DNA of 32,000 nt from Candidatus Saccharimonadota bacterium (GCA_001790095.1 MGBH01000001.1:960001-992000), one strand, 5' to 3'. Positions 2,308 through 32,000 are shown, numbered from the stretch's first letter. A program made the numbers and translations. Notes: generated by a model not told the origin, from the sequence alone.

Positions 2308-3093
2308 ATGCTCCCTCTTATTCAGGTATTTAAAACTACCATCCGTGAATATGCGGCATATCGACTCAACTTTATACTTTGGCGGTTAAGGATGTTTTTA
2401 AATCTACTCTTTAATTTTTTTTTGTGGTCTGCGGTCTTTGATACGCGCTCTACGTTTGGACCTTTCCCAAAACACGCTATGATCTCCTATATTTTGTATG
2501 CCAATCTTATCTCCACCTTTGTGCTTGGATCAAGAACTGCAGAGATAGGCGCCTATATAAATGATGGAACAATTATCAATCTTATCCTCAAACCCGTCTC
2601 TTTTTTTAAATACTACTTTGCACGAGACATCGCAGACAAAGTGATGAATATCGTATTTGCTTTACTTGAGCTTGCTATAGTCATCTGGCTTTTTAACGCA
2701 ACGCTTGTTTTACCACAGAACATTATGTTATTTGCCCTTTTTTTCATAAACGGCATTCTTATTTCTTTTTTCATAAACCTTATGCTTTCCTTTATCGGAT
2801 TTTGGACTCCTGAGATATGGGCTCCTCGCTTCTTGTTTATCATGTTGGTATTTTTTATCTCTGGGTCCTACTTTCCCCTTAATCTCCTTCCTCCACCTGT
2901 CTATCATGCTCTTTTAGTTACCCCCTTCCCTTATCTTTTTTTCCTTCCCTCACTTACCCTTATCGGGCAAATAGATGGCGCTGTCATCTTGTTTCAGCTT
3001 TTTTTCTCGTATTTTTGGGTCGTCATACTGTATCATCTAGCCTTATATATGTGGAAAACCGGCAATAAAAATTTTTCATTTTGGGGAAGATAA
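2308..3093 (+). CDS. ABC-2 type transporter permease (uncharacterised ABC system permease component)
   Basis: 261 aa, very hydrophobic, with about 6 predicted TM helices. It is the first gene of a three-gene unit ending in an ABC ATPase. The family call rests on architecture and context, not on a motif. Confidence 0.65.
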   Translation: MLPLIQVFKTTIREYAAYRLNFILWRLRMFLNLLFNFFLWSAVFDTRSTFGPFPKHAMISYILYANLISTFVLGSRTAEIGAYINDGTIINLILKPVSFFKYYFARDIADKVMNIVFALLELAIVIWLFNATLVLPQNIMLFALFFINGILISFFINLMLSFIGFWTPEIWAPRFLFIMLVFFISGSYFPLNLLPPPVYHALLVTPFPYLFFLPSLTLIGQIDGAVILFQLFFSYFWVVILYHLALYMWKTGNKNFSFWGR

Positions 3094-3098
3094 TACTA

Positions 3099-3188
3099 AT
3101 GACCAATTATCAATTATCAATCAAATTCCAATGATTCAATAATTAATGGAAATTCATTGAAAATTGCAAAACTGAAAATTGAAAATTT
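3099..3188 (+). repeat. AT-rich palindromic element, family A (atgaccaatt...caattatcaatca...ttgaaaattgaaaatt); intergenic copy
   Basis: It shares its start (atgaccaatt) and internal blocks (atcaattatcaatcaaattcc[a/g]atgat) with the copy at 4959-5040, and its heptad tail (ttgaaaatt units) with the other copies. Confidence 0.85.
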
Positions 3189-3984
3189 ATTTATGAATGG
3201 TTTAAAAAAGAATATAAGGATCTTTTATCTTCTTTCCCTCAATGCCCTGAAAATTACCTTTCAGGCCCGAATCGGTGGGATATTTTTTCTTATTGGTAAA
3301 ATCATCCGTGTATTTTTTATTTTTTTATTCTTGAGTCTTATCTTCAGTCGTACCCGAATCATTAAGGGGTATACATTTGACCAAATTCTGCTTTTTTATC
3401 TTACCTTTAATATCATCGATACATTGAGTCAGATCCTGTACCGCGAAGTGTACCGATTTCGTCCACTGGTTGTGAGCGGCGGACTTGATATGGTTCTTCT
3501 TAAGCCGTTTCATCCTTTTGTCCGAGTGCTTTTGGGTGGTATTGATTACTTAGATATTGTTTTAATAGTTCCCTATATTTTATTGACTCTGGGAATTTAT
3601 ATAAAAATGGGTTCATTTCATTGGGGAAATATTATCTTGTATGTAGCTCTTCTTGGCAACTCGATGATCGTTGTTACTGCGTTTCACATCATCGTGCTTG
3701 CTTTTGGAATCATGACCACAGAGGTCGATCATACAATCATGATCTATCGAGATCTTATATCGATGGGAAGGTTTCCTTTGGAGATCTATAAAGAACCCAT
3801 AAGGGCAGTATTTACCTTTATTATTCCAATCGGAGTCATGATGAATGTGCCTGCACAAGCCCTCCTGGGGACTCTTTCCTGGAGGGGCGTCTTTTCTGCT
3901 TTTCTGATATCATTGGGGATGTTATATATCTCTCTTATATTTTGGAAATATGCACTTAAAAAATACCAAAGTTGGGGCGGTTAA
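3157..3984 (+). CDS. ABC-2 type transporter permease, second component
   Basis: 275 aa polytopic membrane protein between the first permease and the ATPase. The first 12 codons (MKIAKLKIENLF) are encoded by the AT-rich repeat at 3099-3188, so the true start is probably the ATG at 3193 (MNGLKKNIRIF...). Confidence 0.65.
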   Translation: MKIAKLKIENLFMNGLKKNIRIFYLLSLNALKITFQARIGGIFFLIGKIIRVFFIFLFLSLIFSRTRIIKGYTFDQILLFYLTFNIIDTLSQILYREVYRFRPLVVSGGLDMVLLKPFHPFVRVLLGGIDYLDIVLIVPYILLTLGIYIKMGSFHWGNIILYVALLGNSMIVVTAFHIIVLAFGIMTTEVDHTIMIYRDLISMGRFPLEIYKEPIRAVFTFIIPIGVMMNVPAQALLGTLSWRGVFSAFLISLGMLYISLIFWKYALKKYQSWGG

Positions 3985-3993
3985 ATAATAATT

Positions 3994-4962
3994 ATGATAT
4001 CGGTCAAAGATCTTACTAAAATTTACAAAGTCCATGAGCGCCAGGGAAATTTTATCAAAGATGTGTTATTTCGCAAATTCAAACGGGTTGAGGCGGTACG
4101 AGAGGTCTCTTTTTCCTTGGAACGCAATGAACTTGTCGGCTTCATAGGCCCCAATGGCGCCGGAAAAACCACAACGCTGAAGATACTAAGCGGTATACTT
4201 TACCCTACTTCTGGGCAGGTGTTTGTTGATGGATTTACTCCTTTTGAAAAAAAACCCGCATTTCTTAAACAGATTGCCTTTGTCATGGGACAGCGAAATC
4301 AGCTCATCTGGGATCTTCCGACAAGAGACAGTTTACAACTTCAGAAAACGATATATGAAGTCTCCGATCTTGAATATAAAAATAATGTACAGGAACTCAC
4401 CTCTCTTCTTGATTGTCAAAATCTGCTGGACAAACCGGTAAAAACGCTTTCTCTGGGTGAGAGAATGAAGATGGAGCTAGTAATGGGGCTCCTCTATAGG
4501 CCACGCATCGTGTTTTTCGATGAGCCAACCATTGGTCTTGATATATTTTCCCAAAGTGCAATAAGGGACTTTATCAAGGAGTATCAATCCGAAACTAAGT
4601 CAACCATCATATTAACAAGCCATTATCTTGAAGATGTTAAACGTCTTGCTAAAAGATTAATCATCATCAATAAAGGGTCAATAGTATATAATGGAAGTTT
4701 GAGTAATATTATTGAACAATATTCGCTTGAAAAGCACGTCAGAGTAACCCTTGACAAAACAGTAAATGAGACAGAAATCCGTAGAATCAATGTGCCATTT
4801 ATGTATACACACCCCAAAATCACCTTTAGCATAAAAAGAGGTGTTTTACCGGAGAAAATCAAGCTTATTACTCAAACTCTTCCTTTTTCAGATCTAACTG
4901 TTGAAGATGAAACGATTGAAGACATCATCAAAAGCTTCTTTGAAGAACAGAGAAACAAATGA
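3994..4962 (+). CDS. ABC transporter ATP-binding protein
   Basis: Walker A GPNGAGKTT, Q-loop MGQRNQ, ABC signature LSLGERMKM, Walker B IVFFDEPTIGLD, H-loop TSHY. The TGA stop lies inside the first bases of the repeat copy at 4959-5040. Confidence 0.92.
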   Translation: MISVKDLTKIYKVHERQGNFIKDVLFRKFKRVEAVREVSFSLERNELVGFIGPNGAGKTTTLKILSGILYPTSGQVFVDGFTPFEKKPAFLKQIAFVMGQRNQLIWDLPTRDSLQLQKTIYEVSDLEYKNNVQELTSLLDCQNLLDKPVKTLSLGERMKMELVMGLLYRPRIVFFDEPTIGLDIFSQSAIRDFIKEYQSETKSTIILTSHYLEDVKRLAKRLIIINKGSIVYNGSLSNIIEQYSLEKHVRVTLDKTVNETEIRRINVPFMYTHPKITFSIKRGVLPEKIKLITQTLPFSDLTVEDETIEDIIKSFFEEQRNK

Positions 4963-5040
4963 CCAATTTTCAATGATCAATTATCAATCAAATTCCGATG
5001 ATAATTGATTGAAAATCGGAAATTGATAATTAATAATTAA
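4959..5040 (+). repeat. Family A AT-rich palindromic element; intergenic copy supplying the TGA stop of the ABC ATPase
   Basis: atgaccaattttcaatgatcaattatcaatcaaattccgatgataattgattgaaaatcggaaattgataatt. The two arms are imperfect reverse complements. Confidence 0.85.
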
Positions 5041-5526: not shown

Positions 5527-6633
5527 ATGTCAAAACTCAAATTAGCCTATTTTGGCACGCCCATCTTTTCAGCCTACCTCCTTGAAAAAATCATCAAAGA
5601 CAAAGAGTTATCCGGTATCATACAGCTTGTCGTAACACAACCTGATAAGTTAGTTGGGAGAAAGCAAATTCTGACAAAGTCGCCCGTAAAAATAGTTGCA
5701 CAAACACATAAGATTGAAGTTTTGGATGATTCGGAAAGTGAAACGCTACTGCAAAAGATCAAGGGACTTGATCTTGCCATTGTGTATGCTTACGGTTTTA
5801 AAAAACTTCTTCCCCTCTCACTTCTCAAAGCCCCAAAAATCAAAATTAAAGATACGGGGACAGGTTTTATCAACATCCACCCTTCTCTTCTTCCTTTATA
5901 TCGCGGCTCCTCTCCTATCGCATACCCCATCTTGCTTGGAGAAAAAATAACTGGCGTATCGCTGTTTGTAATGGATGAACAGATGGATCATGGACCGCTT
6001 ATCGTACAAAAAAAAGTAGAAATAAGATTAAACGAAACAAGAAGCGATATGGAATCAAAATTGACTGATCTTGGGTTTGAAATACTGAAAAAACTTCTCA
6101 ATTCTTTAATCCGTGAATCCGTTAATTCATTAATTTTCACTCCTCAGAATCATTCCCTTGCCACCCGTGCCCCCTATATGATACGAGAAGATGGATATAT
6201 TGAGTTTACAACTCTCAAGAAAGCACTGAACAATGAGCCAATTGCTTTTAAAGAATTACCGCAGATTATCCAAAACTACCTTGATCATTATCCCCAGACA
6301 GATCGAGAACTAGTCTCAAAATACAAATTAGGAAATTATAGTCTGGATTCCCGCCTCCGCGGGAATGACATTTTTTCCAATTCTTCTCAGATTATCTATG
6401 ACTTTTGGAGAGGCATTTCGCCCTGGCCTGGTGTGTGGACCCTGTTAGAACCTCCGAGGTTTGACACGGTCCAGAAAGATAGAATCTCGGAGATTAAATG
6501 GAAAGGCCCAAAACGGCTCAAAATAACTGAAGTATCTTTTGTGGACAATATACTACAAATCAAAAAGGTCCAGCTTGAAGGAAAAAAAGAAGTGGACTTT
6601 ACAACCTTCCAAAAGGCGTATGGTTTGTTATAA
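5527..6633 (+). CDS. fmt: Methionyl-tRNA formyltransferase with an extended C-terminal domain
   Basis: N-terminal formyltransferase fold (LAYFGTP.FS, VVTQPDK, NIHPSLLPLYRGSSPI, VMDEQMDHGP). At 368 aa it is longer than typical Fmt. The extra segment contains an in-frame palindromic repeat at 6337-6370 encoding YSLDSRLRGNDI. Confidence 0.85.
   Translation: MSKLKLAYFGTPIFSAYLLEKIIKDKELSGIIQLVVTQPDKLVGRKQILTKSPVKIVAQTHKIEVLDDSESETLLQKIKGLDLAIVYAYGFKKLLPLSLLKAPKIKIKDTGTGFINIHPSLLPLYRGSSPIAYPILLGEKITGVSLFVMDEQMDHGPLIVQKKVEIRLNETRSDMESKLTDLGFEILKKLLNSLIRESVNSLIFTPQNHSLATRAPYMIREDGYIEFTTLKKALNNEPIAFKELPQIIQNYLDHYPQTDRELVSKYKLGNYSLDSRLRGNDIFSNSSQIIYDFWRGISPWPGVWTLLEPPRFDTVQKDRISEIKWKGPKRLKITEVSFVDNILQIKKVQLEGKKEVDFTTFQKAYGLL
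6337..6370 (-). repeat. GC-core palindromic element, family B (TGTCATYCCCGY-loop-RCGGGRATCCAGWCTATAAT), inside fmt in frame
   Basis: tatagtctggattcccgcctccgcgggaatgaca matches the copy at 13514-13545 at 29 of 32 aligned positions (13514-13545 spans 32 nt). The stem is attcccgc/gcgggaat. Confidence 0.9.
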
Positions 6634-7411: not shown

Positions 7412-8661
7412 AGTCTATTTTCTGTTATCAATTTCCTCACATTCTCCATGAGGCGCTCCATAACCCACAAGTTGTGATATGTCGCAAGCGTACATCCTAA
7501 TATCTCCTTTTGCTTGAAAAGATGATGAAGATAGGCTTTTGTATAGTTTTTACACACCTGACACCCACATCCTTCATTTATTGACGTCAAGTCGGCCTTA
7601 TATATGCTTTTGTTAATATCAATCTGCGTTATAGAAGATTTCAAATTTGAACTGTCTATTTGAGTTTTGATATCTGAGATTTGATATATCGTTCCCATCC
7701 GCGCCAACCGTGTCGGCTCAACACAGTCAAACGTATCAATACCATACTTCACTAAATCGATTATGTCGTCAATATGGCCAACGCCAAGCAAATGTACAGG
7801 TTTATCTACAGGTAAATAGGGCGCAACCCATCTCACCTGATCCCTCATCTCCTCCTTGGTTTCTCCAACAGACACCCCACCTATTGCCACCCCATCAACA
7901 TCTTGGGATGTTACGAATTTAGCAGATGCGATGCGTAGGTCCTCATACGTGCCTCCCTGGATGATTCCATAGAGATACTGTTGGTTAATTTCCATTTTCC
8001 AATTTTCATTTTTCAATGAATTTTCAATTTTCAATTGATCATTGAATCTTAGATTTTGATTGATAATTGGTAACTGTAAATTGGTTTTTTTGTATGAAAT
8101 ACACCTTTTTAACCATTCATGCGTCCGCTTCATTGCTTTTTCTGCATATTCATGAGTCGCAGGATAATAAGTACATTCATCAAACGCCATCATAAGATCT
8201 GCTCCAATTGCTTTTTGATACTCCATAGATTTTTCCGGGGTAAACTCAATGATTTCTCCATCATAGACCGATCGAAACCTTACTCCATCCTCTGATATCT
8301 TAAGCATAAGAGGATCCTCATCCCCTCTCACATGAGCCTTGCGTTTTGAACTTTGTGCAAGAGAAAAAACCTGAAAACCACCGGAATCAGACATAAGAGG
8401 AATCTCGTATTTGGCAAGATTATGAATTCCTCCAACCTTTTGAAGCAACTCCATTCCCGGGTGAGTGATGAGATGATAAGTATTTACAAATGACATCTGT
8501 ATGCCTATTTCTTTTATAAAAGGTTGAGGCAGTGCTTTGATCGTACCTTTTGTCCCAACAGGTACAAATGCGGGGGTTAAAACAGTACCGTGGGCTGTGG
8601 TGATGGTCCCTGTACGAGATGCGGATTTTTTTGATCGTTTGTTTACTGTATAAAAAGACAT
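7408..8661 (-). CDS. tgt: Queuine/preQ1 tRNA-ribosyltransferase (tRNA-guanine transglycosylase) carrying an in-frame repeat-derived insert
   Basis: TPAFVPVGT, MSDSGGFQV, MAFDEC, GIIQGG, VAIGGVSVGE, LLGVG, and the zinc site CGCQVCKNYTKAYLHHL. There is an extra segment of about 30 aa (LQLPIINQNLRFNDQLKIENSLKNENWKME) just before the GIIQGG block. Confidence 0.93.
   Translation of the reverse strand: MSFYTVNKRSKKSASRTGTITTAHGTVLTPAFVPVGTKGTIKALPQPFIKEIGIQMSFVNTYHLITHPGMELLQKVGGIHNLAKYEIPLMSDSGGFQVFSLAQSSKRKAHVRGDEDPLMLKISEDGVRFRSVYDGEIIEFTPEKSMEYQKAIGADLMMAFDECTYYPATHEYAEKAMKRTHEWLKRCISYKKTNLQLPIINQNLRFNDQLKIENSLKNENWKMEINQQYLYGIIQGGTYEDLRIASAKFVTSQDVDGVAIGGVSVGETKEEMRDQVRWVAPYLPVDKPVHLLGVGHIDDIIDLVKYGIDTFDCVEPTRLARMGTIYQISDIKTQIDSSNLKSSITQIDINKSIYKADLTSINEGCGCQVCKNYTKAYLHHLFKQKEILGCTLATYHNLWVMERLMENVRKLITENRL
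7986..8073 (-). repeat. Family A element inside tgt, in frame
   Basis: The reverse complement reads taccaattatcaatcaaaatctaagattcaatgatcaattgaaaattgaaaattcattgaaaaatgaaaattggaaaatgg. It is colinear with the copy at 3099-3188. Confidence 0.8.
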
Positions 8662-11148: not shown

Positions 11149-12948
11149 TCACATCGTGCTTGGTGGACCGTGAGTTTTCTTAAAATGAATTACCAACCAA
11201 ACCGAAACCCCAATGAGAATGACAAGGGCAAGGATAAGAAAAATCGCTTGGATAAATATTTTGTTGGTTAATTCTGTGATTTTGGTATCTTTTTGAGTCA
11301 CTTTTGCCCCTGCACCTGCGCCGGTTGTGTCTATCGTATCGCTTGTTTCTTTCGTAATGCTTGGGGTGTTTTTCTTTGGAGACAGGGTGGGTGCGATATT
11401 ATTTTTTGCATCTTTTCCGACAAATGGATTGATTTGTTGCTCTGCAATATATTTTTGATTCTGTGCAAGAAACACCGATGGTTTTGTATTTATTACTTTT
11501 CCGTCAGCGGTCGTATACCGTATCTCATACGGAAATGAGGGAAGATACTCTGATGAGAACTTAAAAAAACCATTGTTGTCTGCGGTCTTTTGTGAATATG
11601 CTTTGTTTGAAAACTGCAGATATACTCCAACTGCCGCATTCGGTATCACCTTTCCGCCTGCATCATAGGCCACTCCTTCAAGGTATTGAGGGATCGGTTC
11701 AAATTTTACAATAGAATTATCACGTTGTGCAGCGCTTACTGACTTGACAATACCGTTTTTTTTAGTGATTGGTTGGCGAAGATCCACCTTGACAAGTTCA
11801 AGTTCAGAAAATATCTCCATGTTTTTGGGATCTTTTTTAAATGAATTTTGATCTATCTCAATATTGAATCTGCCAAATGCATCACTTTGAAACTTCAAAA
11901 CAGAGCTTGGCAGTCCTGTTGATACAAAATTCATCTTTGCATTGAGTTTGGTCAACGGATGAGAAACCTGACCGTCTATAATGATAAGGCCCTGAGGGGT
12001 AGAACGATAAAAATATTCCATCATCTTCACTGGGTTGTTGGTGTTTAGAGTAGCTACCGCAATATCTCTGTGTACGATCTCCCCTTGCTGCTCGATTAAC
12101 TCTTCATTTTGTACAAGATATATATCTGAATAAGCCTTTGCATAATTTGGATCTATGATGTTTGCATCAACAAGTGGGACCGGATTTGAAAGAAGTCTGT
12201 ACTCCCCGTCCGGCACCACAAAACTAAATGCACCATCTTCTTTGACGGTCTGGGGGTTTTGGATATTGCCTCCCGGCAGATCTAAGGCTGTCATATCAAC
12301 AAAGGTACCTCCCTTTTTAATCTGGAGCGTGACCTTGGAGCCTCGTACTGGTTCAAGAGTACCTGCGTCAAACACTCGCCCGTATGGATCCCATGCGATC
12401 TTTGCGCAGTCTTTTTCTGCGGTCTCAAAATCAAAGGTACCTTGCTGTTGTCCCCCTGCCGCGCCAATCGGAGCAGTGGTCGGATCCCAGTAGTTCATCG
12501 CATACCATCTTCTGTCGTGCCCTTCAGGTGTGGAATCTTTCCATTCGTAAGCGCCTCCCCATTCTGTGGGATTGGAGGCTGGGGTGGATCCATTTGATTC
12601 GAATAACCCTTCAAAAACATATTGCAAATCCGTTTGAAGGGTAGCAATGTTTGATTGTTTATATACCACCATGTCTTGTGCTTCGCTGCCTGTAGTACAG
12701 ATTTGAGAGGTTGCTGTGGATACGCACTCTACAATATAGGTAGGAGTACCTGTCAGCGGTTCAAAACCTGATTTGGCGGTGAGCCTTGCTCTATGACCGT
12801 CAGAAACAGAACAAGAGTTTGGGTCTTTCCAACAATGTTCAGATTCTAGACACACCCAGCGTTCTGTTTGCGCAGACTGAGCATGAGCAAAGGGAGTAAA
12901 AATGCATACTAACAAAAAGGTTGCGACAAAAAACATTATTTTTTTCAT
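11149..12948 (-). CDS. Large secreted or cell-surface protein with a C-terminal membrane anchor
   Basis: The track ORF extends to 13068, but its first 40 codons read through a palindromic repeat (RKGGNP). The ATG at 12948 gives a classic signal peptide, MKKIMFFVATFLLVCIFTPFAHAQSA. A C-terminal TM (IFIQAIFLILALVILIGVSVWLVIHF) is preceded by a Thr/Gly/Ala linker. Central beta-rich segments (e.g. VTLQIKKGG...DGAFSFVVPDGEYRL) resemble carboxypeptidase-regulatory/Cna-B-like repeats. Confidence 0.7.
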   Translation of the reverse strand: MKKIMFFVATFLLVCIFTPFAHAQSAQTERWVCLESEHCWKDPNSCSVSDGHRARLTAKSGFEPLTGTPTYIVECVSTATSQICTTGSEAQDMVVYKQSNIATLQTDLQYVFEGLFESNGSTPASNPTEWGGAYEWKDSTPEGHDRRWYAMNYWDPTTAPIGAAGGQQQGTFDFETAEKDCAKIAWDPYGRVFDAGTLEPVRGSKVTLQIKKGGTFVDMTALDLPGGNIQNPQTVKEDGAFSFVVPDGEYRLLSNPVPLVDANIIDPNYAKAYSDIYLVQNEELIEQQGEIVHRDIAVATLNTNNPVKMMEYFYRSTPQGLIIIDGQVSHPLTKLNAKMNFVSTGLPSSVLKFQSDAFGRFNIEIDQNSFKKDPKNMEIFSELELVKVDLRQPITKKNGIVKSVSAAQRDNSIVKFEPIPQYLEGVAYDAGGKVIPNAAVGVYLQFSNKAYSQKTADNNGFFKFSSEYLPSFPYEIRYTTADGKVINTKPSVFLAQNQKYIAEQQINPFVGKDAKNNIAPTLSPKKNTPSITKETSDTIDTTGAGAGAKVTQKDTKITELTNKIFIQAIFLILALVILIGVSVWLVIHFKKTHGPPSTM

Positions 12949-13023
12949 ATTTTCATGATAGAAGATTTGTACTAAAGAATCAAGAGAGTTAAATCTGTCA
13001 TCCCCATAAGTATTGAAATGGTA

Positions 13024-13053
13024 GCATGGATTCCCGCCTTTGCGGGAATAACG
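13024..13053 (-). repeat. Family B palindromic element (short form)
   Basis: gcatggattcccgcctttgcgggaataacg. It has the same attcccgc/gcgggaat hairpin. Confidence 0.8.
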
Positions 13054-13107
13054 GTATAAGAATACCAAAGTAAGTCATTTGAGCTCAGTAAAATATTTTA
13101 TTGTTTT

Positions 13108-13142
13108 CTGTCATCCCCGCGTTAGAGTGGATTAAGTCTATA
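13108..13142 (+). repeat. Family B palindromic element, degenerate right arm
   Basis: ctgtcatccccgcgttagagtggattaagtctata keeps the TGTCATCCCCG start and the AGTCTATA end. Confidence 0.65.
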
Positions 13143-13163
13143 TTTAATATCTTTAATAGAGAT

Positions 13164-13222
13164 AAGTCATCCCCGTGAGTCAAGGACTTCCCTTTGGGAA
13201 AGACGGGGATCCAGTCTATAAT
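13164..13222 (+). repeat. Family B palindromic element (long form), immediately upstream of the GIY-YIG gene
   Basis: aagtcatccccgtgag...cttccctttgggaaag...acggggatccagtctataat. The outer stem is atccccgt/acggggat, there is an inner hairpin cttccc/gggaag, and the element ends in TATAAT. Confidence 0.85.
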
Positions 13223-13231
13223 AACCTTAAT

Positions 13232-13516
13232 ATGTTTGAAAAAACGTTTTATGTTTACATCCTATCTTCTCAAAAAAATGGAACACTGTATGTTGGAGTA
13301 ACAAACAATCTTATGAAGCGCATTTGGGAACATAAAAATAAATTGGTTGATGGGTTTACTAAAAAATATGAAATTCACCATTTGGTTTACTATGAAATAC
13401 ATGATAATCCAGAATCGGCAATACAGCGAGAAAAACAAATAAAGAAATGGAATCGTCTATGGAAAATCAGATTGATAGAAGAAAAGAATCCTGAGTGGAA
13501 AGATTTGTATATTTAG
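13232..13516 (+). CDS. Stand-alone GIY-YIG nuclease superfamily protein (UPF0213/COG2827-like)
   Basis: FYVYILSSQKNGTLYVGVTNNLMKRIWEHK ... GFTKKYEIHHLVYYE ... AIQREKQIKKW matches the GIY-(10)-YVG, R..EH and E..IK blocks. The track start at 13175 reads through a repeat. The ATG at 13232 follows a TATAAT supplied by the repeat end. Confidence 0.85.
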   Translation: MFEKTFYVYILSSQKNGTLYVGVTNNLMKRIWEHKNKLVDGFTKKYEIHHLVYYEIHDNPESAIQREKQIKKWNRLWKIRLIEEKNPEWKDLYI

Positions 13517-13545
13517 TCTGGATTCCCGCCTTCGCGGGAATGACA
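13514..13545 (-). repeat. Family B palindromic element immediately downstream of the GIY-YIG gene, in inverted orientation; contains its TAG stop
   Basis: tagtctggattcccgccttcgcgggaatgaca. Confidence 0.9.
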
Positions 13546-13602
13546 ATGCAAATAAGTAACGTTGTAAGCTACGAGGTATATGATAACCATCATATATTTC
13601 TT

Positions 13603-13638
13603 TGTCATCCTCGGGCTTGGCCCGGGGATCCAGACTAT
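13603..13638 (+). repeat. Family B palindromic element
   Basis: tgtcatcctcgggcttggcccggggatccagactat. Confidence 0.8.
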
Positions 13639-13654
13639 GATTACAGATCAGATT

Positions 13655-13798
13655 CACCCTCATCTCCTAGACGATAAGATATGTATCATCTCAGAGATGA
13701 GGGTGTTGTGGTAGTTGGAATCAGATTTTGAGCCATGGTTGGGCTAGTCTCGCAAGATGCGAGACTCAATCCATGGCACTGTGCCACACACAACACCC
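13655..13798. other. Nested-stem structured element (candidate ncRNA or DNA cruciform) between the repeat cluster and the lipoprotein gene
   Basis: Four perfect stems can be read directly: caccctcatctc (13655-13666) with gagatgagggtg (13694-13705); gggtgttgtg (13701-13710) with cacaacaccc (13789-13798); gccatgg (13732-13738) with ccatggc (13771-13777); and agtctcgca (13746-13754) with tgcgagact (13758-13766). Confidence 0.5.
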
Positions 13799-13814
13799 TA
13801 CATCGGATGGAATT

Positions 13815-14348
13815 TTACTTGACGCGAGCCCACCAGTCATACAAATTGAGATAGGCCTTGCCCGACTCAAAACTGATAAAGCCCACACTCATCTCATCTT
13901 CATCGTTACAACCGCTGACGAGGTATTGATCACCCTGGTGATAAACTTCTCCCGTGAGGGTTATTTCCCATTCCCCAACATTATTCTGCGTTGGTCTTTC
14001 ATCAACGTAGATAATGATTGTAACGTCATACAACCACCCAGCATCAATACAGGCGTTTGTATACTCTACCTTATAGGGCGACCTCTCCATCGTTAACTCG
14101 CGCTTCTCAACAACAGTTGATAGCGCGTATTCGGGGGAAGAACAGATCATGGGAGGGTGACATTCAGGCGTGATTGACGGAGCGGGGGGTTGAGGGGTGG
14201 ACGGAATGGCTGTGGGTTGTGGCTGCGGAGTTGATTCATTGGTCGGGACCGACGGTTGCGGTTCCGGAGTTGATACGGGGCTACCAAAGCATGCGCTTAT
14301 CAGCGTAGCAATAAGTAGCAAGCAAGCAACATTATACAGTTTCTTCAT
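13815..14348 (-). CDS. Lipoprotein with a Pro-rich linker
   Basis: The signal peptide plus lipobox is MKKLYNVACLLLIATLISAC. This is followed by a PQPxP-rich linker and a Cys-containing globular domain. It is preceded by a canonical AAGGAG 6 nt before the ATG, and it is visibly GC-richer than its neighbours. Confidence 0.7.
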   Translation of the reverse strand: MKKLYNVACLLLIATLISACFGSPVSTPEPQPSVPTNESTPQPQPTAIPSTPQPPAPSITPECHPPMICSSPEYALSTVVEKRELTMERSPYKVEYTNACIDAGWLYDVTIIIYVDERPTQNNVGEWEITLTGEVYHQGDQYLVSGCNDEDEMSVGFISFESGKAYLNLYDWWARVK

Positions 14349-14779
14349 AATTAACTCCTTATACTTCGTTTGATGGGTTGATAGAAATACATGCAGTTTT
14401 TTATCTTATATCATCTTATACTTGTCTCCTTTCTTCATCAATTCAATGATGAACTCCTATTTAAACACATAGAATAATCATGCGCTTAAAACGGAGTTCA
14501 TCACTTTAGAATAATTCCAACCGATGTTTTTTCAAAGAGCTTTTTAACCTGTTTTTTGATTTGCTTGTATCAAAAATGGTTAAAAAACAAAAAAATCCAT
14601 ACAACTACTGCAGAATGCTTATCTCTGCTTTGTTTATATCTTATAGTATTATATCACACCCATAGTGTATATGTATCAAATATGTATATTTAACCATCTA
14701 ATGACTCATTTTGTGCATGCCGCTGTTATTAGTTTGAAAATGAAGTTAAAGAAGAATTCAGAAGTAAAAAAAACAAAAA

Positions 14780-25101: not shown

Positions 25102-25191
25102 ACGTATTTTATAGATTAATTCAATAACGATTAGTTTTATAGATCTATATATTACAAATATTTCTGAAAAAAAGCTGAAAAGCCTTTTTCT

Positions 25192-25264
25192 GTCATCCCC
25201 GTGAAGATCGGGTTCACCCTGAACTTCGGTTCACCGTGAAGGGGACTCAGTCTATAATGACAAT
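25192..25264 (+). repeat. Family B palindromic element (long form) between ctpA and htrA
   Basis: tgtcatccccgtgaag...ccgtgaaggggactcagtctataatgaca has the same ends as the copy at 13164-13222. Confidence 0.8.
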
Positions 25265-30678: not shown

Positions 30679-32000
30679 ATGTTTAAAAAGTTCCCCCTTA
30701 TTTTTTTGTGTGTACTTCTCTTTTATACCCGCTTTGTTGGTCTAGACTGGGGGTTGCCATACCCTATGCATCCTGATGAACGCAATATGGCCGTCGCAGT
30801 TCAGCAACTTACCTGTAAAGGGTTGGGGCCAATCGCCTATCTCCAACCGCTAACCGAATGTCTGAATCCTCACTTTTTTGCGTATGGACAGTTTCCGATC
30901 TATCTTGCATATTTTGGCATACTCATATTCCATTTTTTGCAAGGCATAAAAGCTCCTCCTGGTTTTATTGAGGCTACGATGGCTTTGCGAACAATCTCGG
31001 CATTAGCCTCAGTAGCAAATGCTTTTGTATTGTTTCGTATCATCGAATTTTCAATTTTAGATTTTCAATTTTCAAACAAATCTCATTCTAAAAATTCAAA
31101 AAATAAAAAATTGAATGAAAATTGGTTATTGAAAATTGGTTCATTCCTGGTCTTGATATTCTCTCCTTACTTCATCCAATTCTCCCATTTTGGTACCACC
31201 GAGTCACTTCTTATGCTCTTTTATTCTTTCATCATTTACGAATGCATCAAGCTCATTCAGAACAAAAACCTAAACACTAACTACTATCTACTAGCTACTA
31301 TTTCAGGAATTGCAATCGCCACAAAAGTTTCCTCCGTACTGTTTTTAGCCGTACCTGTCGTGTTTATAGGTATAAAAACAGGTTTGAGAAGTCTAACTGT
31401 ACTCTTTACTCTTTCCCGCTTTATTCTTCTTACCATGCTCGTCTCTATCATCTTTTCTCCCCACAACATCATCTCCCTTGAAGAGTTTGCGGGCTCGATG
31501 AACTATGAATCAGCGGTGGCAATCGGAAGCTATGTTGCCTTTTACACCAAACAGTTTGTCAATGCTCCCCCCCTTATATTTCAACTGACTAAGATTTTCC
31601 CTTTTGTATTGGGTTGGCCTCAATTTATATTGTCTGTCCTTGGTCTTCTTGTCTTATCATGGAGAGATAAAAGGATAAACGTGCTTCGATTTGCTTTTAT
31701 CGTTTTTTTTCTTCCGAATGCGTTTGTATTTGCAAAATGGACACGATTTATGACGCCTATTTTCCCGATTTTAAGCTTATTTACAATTCTCACACTTTGC
31801 AAACTTCTTAAAGTTTTCCAAAACAAATTCTCAATTATCAATGATCAATTTTCAATCATTTATCGAAAACTGAAAATTGAACGTTGGAGGTGTATTGAAA
31901 ATTGGAAATTGAAAATTGATCATTCTATAGTTTTTATATTAATCACTATAGTAATTCTCCCCGGTATCGCATACCTTTCTATCTACCAAACACCTGATGT
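30679..32000 (+). CDS. GT39/ArnT/PMT-like polytopic membrane glycosyltransferase; partial, continuing beyond the window end
   Basis: Absent from the track because it has no stop in the window. My translation from the ATG at 30679 gives MFKKFPLIFLCVLLFYTRFVGLDWGLPYPMHPDERNMAVA..., followed by many TM helices. Two in-frame repeat inserts encode IEFSILDFQFSNKSHSKNSKNKKLNENWLLKIGS and FSIINDQFSIIYRKLKIERWRCIENWKLKIDH. Confidence 0.8.
   Translation, partial: MFKKFPLIFLCVLLFYTRFVGLDWGLPYPMHPDERNMAVAVQQLTCKGLGPIAYLQPLTECLNPHFFAYGQFPIYLAYFGILIFHFLQGIKAPPGFIEATMALRTISALASVANAFVLFRIIEFSILDFQFSNKSHSKNSKNKKLNENWLLKIGSFLVLIFSPYFIQFSHFGTTESLLMLFYSFIIYECIKLIQNKNLNTNYYLLATISGIAIATKVSSVLFLAVPVVFIGIKTGLRSLTVLFTLSRFILLTMLVSIIFSPHNIISLEEFAGSMNYESAVAIGSYVAFYTKQFVNAPPLIFQLTKIFPFVLGWPQFILSVLGLLVLSWRDKRINVLRFAFIVFFLPNAFVFAKWTRFMTPIFPILSLFTILTLCKLLKVFQNKFSIINDQFSIIYRKLKIERWRCIENWKLKIDHSIVFILITIVILPGIAYLSIYQTPD
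31045..31142 (-). repeat. Family A element inside the GT39 gene, in frame, antisense orientation relative to the gene
   Basis: The reverse complement starts tgaaccaattttcaataacc and ends ttgaaaattgaaaatctaaaattgaaaattc. This matches the start and tail of the 3099 and 4959 copies. Confidence 0.75.
31827..31924 (+). repeat. Family A element inside the GT39 gene, in frame, sense orientation
   Basis: The segment caattatcaatgatcaattttcaatca ... ctgaaaattga ... ttgaaaattggaaattgaaaattgatca compares with caattttcaatgatcaattatcaatca at 4965-4990. Confidence 0.8.

Follow-up and report, generated by a model that had tools for sequence, protein, structure and literature searches.

A hairpin repeat related to the recognition sites of SsnA nucleases lies in frame within fmt, the gene for methionyl-tRNA formyltransferase (Fmt), in the stretch of Candidatus Saccharimonadota bacterium DNA analyzed here (GCA_001790095.1 MGBH01000001.1:960001-992000; 32,000 nucleotides, referred to in full as the window). 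We consider it likely that this sequence is a family hairpin repeat, a DNA-level target of the SsnA type, that is carried as a passenger in a permissive loop of Fmt. The repeat family and its presence inside genes are already known from Rickettsia, Neisseria and other bacteria, and the fmt event is a real further example.

The repeat unit, TATAGTCTGGATTCCCGCCTCCGCGGGAATGACA on the plus strand, is read without interruption as YSLDSRLRGNDI, residues 271 to 282 of a 368-residue Fmt, which confirms the in-frame palindromic element that a first-pass annotation of the window had placed at 6337-6370. As single-stranded DNA (ssDNA) the unit forms an 8-bp stem (ATTCCCGC/GCGGGAAT) closed by a loop of four nucleotides, and either strand is predicted to fold with a free energy of about -10 kcal/mol (-10.3; z = -3.7). 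The stem is perfect, as that annotation had it, but it is not purely GC, since three of its eight pairs are A-T and five are G-C. On the minus strand the reading past the CCA tail is GACTATAAT. The expected near-identity with an intergenic copy was borne out: 32 of the 34 positions are identical at 13512-13545 (previously delimited as 13514-13545), with 0.00 such matches expected in shuffled sequence, and a third copy at 13022-13053 has 81% identity. The core TTCCCGC-N-GCGGGAA occurs three times in the window, against 0.23 expected; the GC content of the window is 37-43%. Four of the six reading frames are open across the unit and its flank; the closed ones are a sense-orientation frame with TAG and TGA and an antisense frame in which a TAA appears once the flank is included. 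The fmt frame reads TAT AGT where the copy at 13512-13545 provides an ssnA-like open reading frame (ORF) with its TAG (13514-13516), so that the stop codon ending this GIY-YIG gene is indeed avoided in fmt. The copies at 13164, 13603 and 25192, in contrast, are not reverse complements of the unit as proposed; they are relatives in the opposite orientation that have the termini in common (TGTCAT... / ...ATCCAGWCTATAAT) but carry stems of the CCCCG type and longer loops.

Judged by its sequence, the fmt unit is a member of the family variously described as CGTC-1 repetitive extragenic palindromes (REPs), dRS3-NTS of Neisseria, Rickettsia palindromic element (RPE) 6, and the "Ssn-related motif" (SRM). 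CGTC-1 is a tagged REP family that has been equated with Neisseria dRS3 and with RPE-6 of Rickettsia conorii (Di Nocera, De Gregorio and Rocco 2013, PMC3733652). The minus strand of the fmt unit begins with the tag TGTC followed by ATTCCCGC (the family tag is CGTC, with TGTC or CCTC allowed), the 8-bp stem has complementary A/T at its first two positions and encloses the four-nucleotide loop GGAG, the tail reads ...GCGGGAAT-CCA-GACTATA, and the sequence is repeated, with three units of the fmt stem type and about five of a CCCC-stem type in 32 kb. The unit agrees with the NTS consensus CGTCATTCCCGCGMAVGCGGGAATCYRG at 26 of 28 positions. NTS and SRM sequences are the ssDNA recognition sites of SsnA GIY-YIG nucleases, and the NTS-ssnA-NTS architecture resembles that of an insertion sequence (IS); the N. 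meningitidis enzyme, a single-domain protein of 94 amino acids, binds the hairpin in only one of the two strands and cleaves upstream of it, at a distance of a few nucleotides (Chenal et al. 2025, PMC11893778). Among ssnA homologues, 71% have SRMs nearby and 42% have the motif on both sides (PMC11893778). A search of the whole window with Rfam at gathering thresholds and with a tRNA scan gave no match.

The window itself encodes a predicted ssnA-like protein about 7 kb from the fmt copy, with inverted SRMs on both sides of the gene. The protein has the length of N. meningitidis SsnA, and its Y9, Y20 and E67 are spaced identically to the catalytic Y6, Y17 and E64 of that enzyme, as judged by inspection rather than by alignment. 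NCBIfam holds no fitting model for it, and the PDB search returned only distant UPF0213 proteins. Homologues with 70-87% identity are found on many Roizmanbacteria contigs, whereas Fmt is at most 55% identical outside the strain; this contrast could reflect a horizontally moving element or strong constraint on a small enzyme. The unit upstream of the gene contains a promoter-like TTGGGA-17-TATAAT (13194-13222) that ends 10 nt before the ssnA ATG and has the repeat's conserved CTATAAT flank as its -10 box; at another locus (L176) a single unit brings the same TATAAT to about 30 nt before rplK. Other samples yielded eight short contigs (L089-L096) corresponding to 12200-14700, all of which start and stop within about 1 kb of the SRM/ssnA cluster, which suggests that assemblies tend to break around it.

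The arrangement of the ssnA flanks, a left-end unit upstream of the gene and a right-end unit at its stop codon, recurs elsewhere. A metagenome scan with the right-end unit and its flank hit at least 119 contigs; it is an arbitrary sample, in which we counted distinct copies. Among the copies listed, 90 could be assessed: 64 are single, 23 have an inverted unit 2-49 nt upstream, mostly with the CCCC-type stem, and three come immediately after the 3' end of ssnA genes. The dimers thus have the left-end/right-end order of the ssnA flanks minus the gene, and by sequence they look like ssnA elements that lost ssnA. The fmt insert probably has the same organization. Window positions 6312-6369 match an intergenic dimer (L115, AGTCTaAAAATACAAATTtGAAAT plus the unit) over 58 nt at 93%, and 6325-6370 match two further loci (L136 and L188) over 46 nt at 98%. 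The first of these matches implies that the inserted DNA extends at least to 6312; the insertion of 6337-6370 stands, and the left boundary drawn there earlier has to be moved outward, probably to 6283. The segment 6283-6311 has the position and frame of the intact CGTCATCCC...GGGATCC units in the orthologous genes of loci L001, L002 and L007. However, the peptide that it encodes (DHYPQ) also resembles a native xKYPxE motif of orthologues without repeats, and because of this resemblance its reading as a decayed left hairpin is only probable. Very probably, then, the fmt insert represents a complete left-end/right-end dimer of about 88 nt, the left hairpin of which would have decayed.

The host gene is an intact ORF in synteny with fmt of L001 and L219, and its product contains the Pfam domains PF00551 (Formyl_trans_N, residues 7-188, 1.7e-29) and PF02911 (Formyl_trans_C, residues 283-363). 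The TIGR00460 score is 163.9, below the cut-off of 201.5, because the match ends at residue 238. The AlphaFold2 (AF2) model (mean predicted local distance difference test score, pLDDT, 89.8) has the Fmt fold, with template modelling (TM) scores of 0.77-0.79 to 2FMT, 1FMT and 4IQF (0.79 for 2FMT; Foldseek). The alignment to the solved Fmt proteins breaks off at residue 229 and picks up again at about residue 284. The first half of the intervening extension (TLKKALNNEP..ELPxIIxNYL) is conserved across the 30 aligned orthologues and is predicted with high confidence to be helical; the second half, which holds the repeat, is nearly absent in some of the 120 orthologues and reaches about 90 residues in others. 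This loop is permissive. Low confidence in the model is limited to residues 251-282 and 308-328 (10-residue blocks spanning 251-280, with pLDDT 78, 61 and 63, and 311-330, with 52 and 68), which are the two repeat-derived loops of the protein; the repeat segment itself combines a pLDDT of 61-63 with a hypervariable position. The structure prediction that the first-pass annotation had proposed as a check hence agrees with an insertion. The loop with the repeat may lie at the protein surface, away from the tRNA. In the model, the Fmt fold and the conserved motifs are retained despite the in-frame repeat, which introduces no stop codon, as in the RPEs. The unusual length of Fmt had been ascribed to the sequence around the unit; the inserted element is real, but most of the excess is due to the lineage-wide extension (residues ~230-283) together with a second hairpin-derived loop (residues 308-326).

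This second segment, at 6448-6504 (GAACCTCCGAGG...TCTCGGAGAT, read EPPRFDTVQKDRISEIKW), has a pLDDT below 50 at residues 319-322 and no other copy within the window. Related segments occupy the same place in orthologue clusters P0002 (two in tandem), P0003, P0007 and P0023, and most orthologues are without one. Several orthologues contain insertions in the N-domain at about residues 66-70, and another hairpin-type repeat, read TQSRAV...SEHECGxKND, is found in the fmt loop of P0008 (L097, 1775-1900) and in an N-domain insertion of P0004. In a contig of another sample (L004; 99.7% identical), 12 nt are missing at window positions 6007-6018 (QKKV, residues 161-164 of the N-domain), beside an A-run. 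The hypervariable loop also accommodates an AT-rich repeat (TGAAAATTGGAAATTGAAAATTG / ATCAATTATCAAT), which is read ENWKLKIENSS in dozens of Microgenomates orthologues. In the window this repeat is found at 3092-3203, 4957-5038, 7982-8090, 31039-31160 and 31823-31940, in intergenic positions and also in frame in tgt (7982-8090, about 29 extra residues relative to the L006 orthologue). In another assembly of the strain (L088, 4676), tgt is split into two ORFs by the absence of 7 nt, CCTCATC, between short direct repeats (window 7843-7849); the difference is due to either population variation or misassembly.

The orthologue comparison, which covered 120 listed clusters, an alignment of 30 orthologues and a weakly resolved neighbour-joining tree, likewise supports an insertion. 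The closest Fmt relatives outside the strain, none more than 55% identical, are labelled Roizmanbacteria or Patescibacteria, and members of the close clade (such as P0006, P0010, P0011 and P0012) have no SRM-derived peptide in the hypervariable loop. Such peptides occur in five of the 120 clusters, representing four lineages, and every one of them is in this same loop. One cluster (P0001) is the strain of the window. Two others, P0004 (L002) and P0005 (L001), use the frame of the window, their left unit encoding RHPxxxRDP and their right unit LDSRLRGND, as far from the conserved NYL as in the window; P0002 (L007) has two to three left units; and P0028 (L005) encodes VIPAKAGIQ and IDSRFHGND, with a decayed dimer in its sister P0035 (L098). 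A conserved peptide lacking nucleotide similarity to the repeats, the outcome named beforehand as speaking against an insertion, is not what we see. The 27 nucleotides encoding LDSRLRGND are identical at 26-27 positions among the window, L001 and L002, in matching position and frame, whereas the genes have 65-67% nucleotide identity (47-52% at third positions) and the proteins about 59-62%. Given identical residues, eight to nine of the nine third-codon positions agree, where the background is 0.52-0.58 (P = 0.007-0.03 per pair). Between L001 and L002 the dimers have 88% identity across 91 nt, with a 17-nt spacer that is the same in both, in genes that are 67% identical, and a compensatory change in the left hairpin (GAC..GTC versus GGC..GCC) keeps it paired. 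The spacer of the window, in contrast, is like that of L115 (22/25) and unlike that of L001 and L002. In other lineages the units have decayed in the ordinary way: six substitutions separate L005 from its 80%-identical sister L098, in which the hairpins are broken, L219 (P0003/P0007) retains a degenerate remnant (CATGTACGAGAAGACGCGCCT) of the unit that is intact in L007, and L097 and L099, which the weakly resolved tree places as sisters of L002 and L001, have no intact units. When contigs were scanned with the Fmt alignment, the matches listed were distant relatives only (best 42%), and strict SRM matches were almost absent from the 80 loci listed. That the DNA in the fmt loop is far more conserved than the gene means that the units are younger than the genes or are kept uniform at the DNA level. 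We favor the former, in that the sequences point to recurrent arrival or replacement in one permissive loop after the genes had diverged.

The family also enters other genes. Among the 95 metagenomic copies listed, 17 sit within long frames free of stops that continue for 40 or more codons in both directions, and at least 10 have hosts that Pfam confirms as real genes. These hosts are orotidine monophosphate decarboxylase (pyrF), a GT2 glycosyltransferase with two copies, RecJ, a glycerate-kinase-like protein, two PMT_2 glycosyltransferases, a Wzy_C ligase, a methyltransferase (whose true start may be downstream of the unit), UvrC and TsaE. The frames in use in this sample include LDSRLRGND, WIPAxAGMT, VIPAKAGIQ and HSREGGNP. 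The genic share is far below that expected for random insertion into gene-dense DNA, which indicates that selection removes most genic copies.

These observations can be combined as follows. The repeat units would act at the DNA level: the oriented ssDNA hairpin, on the minus strand in fmt, is the predicted binding site of an SsnA-type GIY-YIG nuclease, with cleavage a few nucleotides 5' of it, and the cognate ssnA gene may be the one between inverted left-end and right-end units 7 kb away. A passenger copy would have landed in, or been copied into, the hypervariable and presumably surface-exposed loop of the lineage-specific Fmt extension, where it is read in a stop-free frame and would add some 12-29 residues, unstructured or weakly helical. 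The insert would be tolerated because the loop is permissive. We infer that the local SsnA binds the fmt copy and that the repeat-encoded peptide presumably has no function in Fmt.

Several observations weigh against this interpretation. The fmt copy does not match the SRM string HGTCWYN(0-2)YYVSBRHN(0-5)WNVSBRGN(0-2)RNCYNB, because one loop base is G where H is required; exact matches are 13518-13545 and the fmt units of L001, L002 and L007. The loop GGAG, compared with the consensus GMAV, corresponds to a synonymous CTT to CTC change in fmt, and with this base off both the NTS consensus and the SRM string, binding of the fmt copy by SsnA is not assured. On the 7-13 kb contigs of L001, L002 and L007 the only strict SRMs are those in fmt. 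One would expect a purely passive passenger to have decayed, yet the right-end unit is nearly unchanged between the fmt genes of the window, L001 and L002. No empty-site allele was found among 10 other assemblies of the strain (99.7-100% identical), which carry the insert or stop short of it, and in the search of 219 loci for empty sites the only differences found were in a repeat cluster that varies in copy number (L143/L211) and in a nusG-rplK spacer, 73% identical between L176 and L011, that has a unit in one of the two; neither defines the ends of the element. The ends are inverted, and no target-site duplication or exact insertion boundary was recognized. In view of these negative results, the insertion is deduced from comparison.

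An alternative explanation is that the ancestor of the window, L001 and L002, and perhaps L007, received one ancient insertion, after which the DNA was kept intact by gene conversion with other copies in the genome as donors (concerted evolution), maybe started by an SsnA nick, or by selection for some function of an SsnA site at this place. The shared loop and frame, 20-21 codons past the conserved NYL in all three genes, the excess of identical third-codon positions, the compensatory change in the left hairpin, a right junction (AATGAC|ATTATTGGA) common to L097 and its sister L002, and the restriction of strict SRMs to fmt on the three contigs would all be expected under this scenario. However, the spacer of the window resembles that of an unrelated intergenic dimer rather than that of L001 and L002, and the dimers of L001 and L002 resemble one another far more closely than do the genes that contain them; together these two findings point to elements younger than the gene split. 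The ordinary decay or absence of units in L097, L099, L219 and L098 does not fit with long-term maintenance either, and we regard the ancient insertion as rather unlikely. Of similar standing, and thus no more than tentatively proposed, is the possibility that the ssnA unit is genuinely mobile and has two different hairpin ends, and that the gene-less left/right dimers are MITEs, or miniature inverted-repeat transposable elements, mobilized by SsnA. The left end would be the CCCC-type stem with the ssnA promoter and the right end the TTCCCGC stem overlapping the ssnA stop codon, and the elements would repeatedly have hit or replaced one another at one fmt codon (after AAY TAC CTT) in separate Roizmanbacteria lineages. 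Hits that recur at one codon would mean either that the target is sequence-specific or that resident copies are preferred. If this were the case, SsnA would be the first bacterial GIY-YIG ssDNA 'transposase'.

The hairpin could also have been co-opted as RNA, that is, as an intragenic attenuator, terminator or mRNA-stability element that tunes the 3' part of fmt and the downstream gene. REPs are widely thought to act as RNA elements, and the sense-strand hairpin (6347-6366) is followed by a T-run (GACAUUUUUU / GACATTTTTT, to 6376), which makes it the only terminator-like site found by a consensus scan of 6150-6550. That scan reports consensus matches only, 0.3 of which are expected by chance; the T-run is 4 nt away from the 8-bp stem and is absent in L001 (GACAAAATG) and L002 (GACATTATT); and a terminator 260 nt before the stop codon of an essential gene would be costly. 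We consider an RNA role improbable. Finally, the sequence might be a native Fmt peptide that resembles the repeats by chance, or an assembly chimera, for which the mere existence of the loop in all Microgenomates orthologues could be cited. This notion is refuted: chance would yield 0.00 matches, 115 of the 120 orthologue clusters lack the peptide, the same sequence is present in independent assemblies of other samples (L004, L088), and the identity to the repeats extends to CGC codons, which are rare in this genome with its GC content of 37-43%. The passenger repeat in a permissive loop remains the explanation that we prefer.

Table 1. Coordinates of fmt, its repeat-derived segments, and the other SRM units and ssnA-like gene of the window.
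Feature	Position	Strand	Sequence or evidence
fmt (methionyl-tRNA formyltransferase), host gene	5527..6633	+	368-aa intact ORF
Lineage-specific extension of Fmt C-terminal domain, aa ~230-283	6214..6375	+	PDB alignment, orthologue alignment, loop listing, pLDDT profile
Probable decayed left-end-type hairpin	6283..6311	+	GATCATTATCCCCAGACAGATCGAGAACT; stem unpaired; ~60% to left-end consensus by eye
Spacer and 3' flank of the partner unit, part of the inserted element	6312..6336	-	AGTCTCAAAATACAAATTAGGAAAT
Right-end-type SRM / CGTC-1 REP unit in fmt	6337..6370	-	TGTC-ATTCCCGC-GGAG-GCGGGAAT-CCA-GACTATA
Diverged right-end-type SRM (81%), intergenic	13022..13053	-	TGTCATCCCC remnant before it at 12996-13005; L088 gene call stops short of it
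Left-end-type SRM upstream of ssnA	13164..13225	+	AAGTCATCCCCG..long loop..CGGGGATCCAGTCTATAATAAC
ssnA-like gene, 94-aa single-domain GIY-YIG nuclease (predicted)	13232..13516	+	PF01541 7.4e-17, residues 6-78, no other domain
Right-end-type SRM overlapping ssnA stop codon	13512..13545	-	13518-13545 exact to published NTS consensus and SRM search string
Left-end-type SRM, intergenic	13601..13644	+	TTTGTCATCCTCGGGC-TTG-GCCCGGGGATCCAGACTATGATTAC
Left-end-type SRM, long loop, between two minus-strand genes	25190..25261	+	

Adjoining the SRM cluster, about 150 nt at 13655-13800 are strongly structured (z = -6.3 for the minus and -4.1 for the plus strand), with two long hairpins that are nested and no Rfam match. 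This stretch lies directly 3' of a minus-strand gene (13815-14348) and could be a small RNA or a 3' untranslated region structure.

The findings extend a family known from Proteobacteria (dRS3/NTS, RPE-6) to ultra-small bacteria of the candidate phyla radiation (CPR), in which in-frame repeats within core genes (fmt, pyrF, uvrC, recJ and tsaE) are more frequent than reported for Neisseria. In our literature search we did not find the family in CPR bacteria, fmt as a host, a consistent asymmetry between left-type and right-type dimer halves, one loop occupied repeatedly across lineages, a paper on the repeat-encoded peptides, or follow-up work on Ssn mobility. For annotation, LDSRLRGND, VIPAKAGIQ, WIPAFAGMT and HSREGGNP in CPR proteins should be taken as marks of repeat DNA and not as protein motifs, and such peptides depress the scores of family models, as illustrated by Fmt and TIGR00460. 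The asymmetric dimers, their identity to the ssnA flanks, and the conservation of dimer DNA beyond that of the host gene are evidence for an IS-like ssnA unit with non-autonomous derivatives, and bear on the question of how SRM/NTS repeats multiply.

Among known systems, the CGTC-1 REPs are closest in form: the TGTC/CGTC tag, the 8-bp stem starting with AT, the 4-nt loop and the CCA tail are common to both, as is the occurrence as single units and inverted dimers (spacers of 20-100 bp). Intragenic GTAG and CGTC REPs, units as well as dimers encoding 20-30 residues, were catalogued in 2013; they are commonest in R. conorii (RPE-4, RPE-6), and many are in replication and repair genes (PMC3733652), to which uvrC and recJ can be compared here. 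The host phylum (CPR/Patescibacteria, Roizmanbacteria-like), however, is outside the five phyla of that study, and fmt is a different host gene; the copies described here have an extended 3' flank (CCAGWCTATAAT..), their dimers combine two stem types, and an ssnA-like gene is near, whereas no dedicated enzyme was reported for CGTC repeats (PMC3733652). The resemblance to the NTS/SsnA system lies in near-identity to the NTS consensus, in a single-domain GIY-YIG gene of 94 codons' product length between inverted motifs, and in the clustering of motifs around ssnA. The genic share differs, with at least 10 of 95 copies in our arbitrary sample being well above the 2% of NTS found inside genes in N. 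meningitidis (PMC11893778). Patescibacteria are not mentioned in that study, the fmt copy has a non-consensus loop base, and the homologue in the window is known from its sequence alone.

Palindromic elements in frame in protein genes of Rickettsia were described by Ogata et al. (2000), as summarized in PMC10969869, and these RPEs are, like the fmt unit, selfish palindromic repeats that reside in frame in housekeeping genes and are compatible with the protein fold. The classic RPE-1 is about 150 bp long and encodes a conserved peptide of 30-50 amino acids, whereas the unit described here has 34 nt, or about 88 nt as a dimer, and its hosts read it in several frames. REP/BIME-RAYT systems and IS200/IS605 elements, with the non-autonomous derivatives of the latter, similarly have hairpin ends recognized as ssDNA, bracket a small nuclease gene, and are accompanied by dispersed gene-less dimers. 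They differ in that their enzyme is an HUH tyrosine transposase rather than a GIY-YIG nuclease, in that their ends have the same orientation and are not inverted, and in that transposition has never been shown for Ssn elements.

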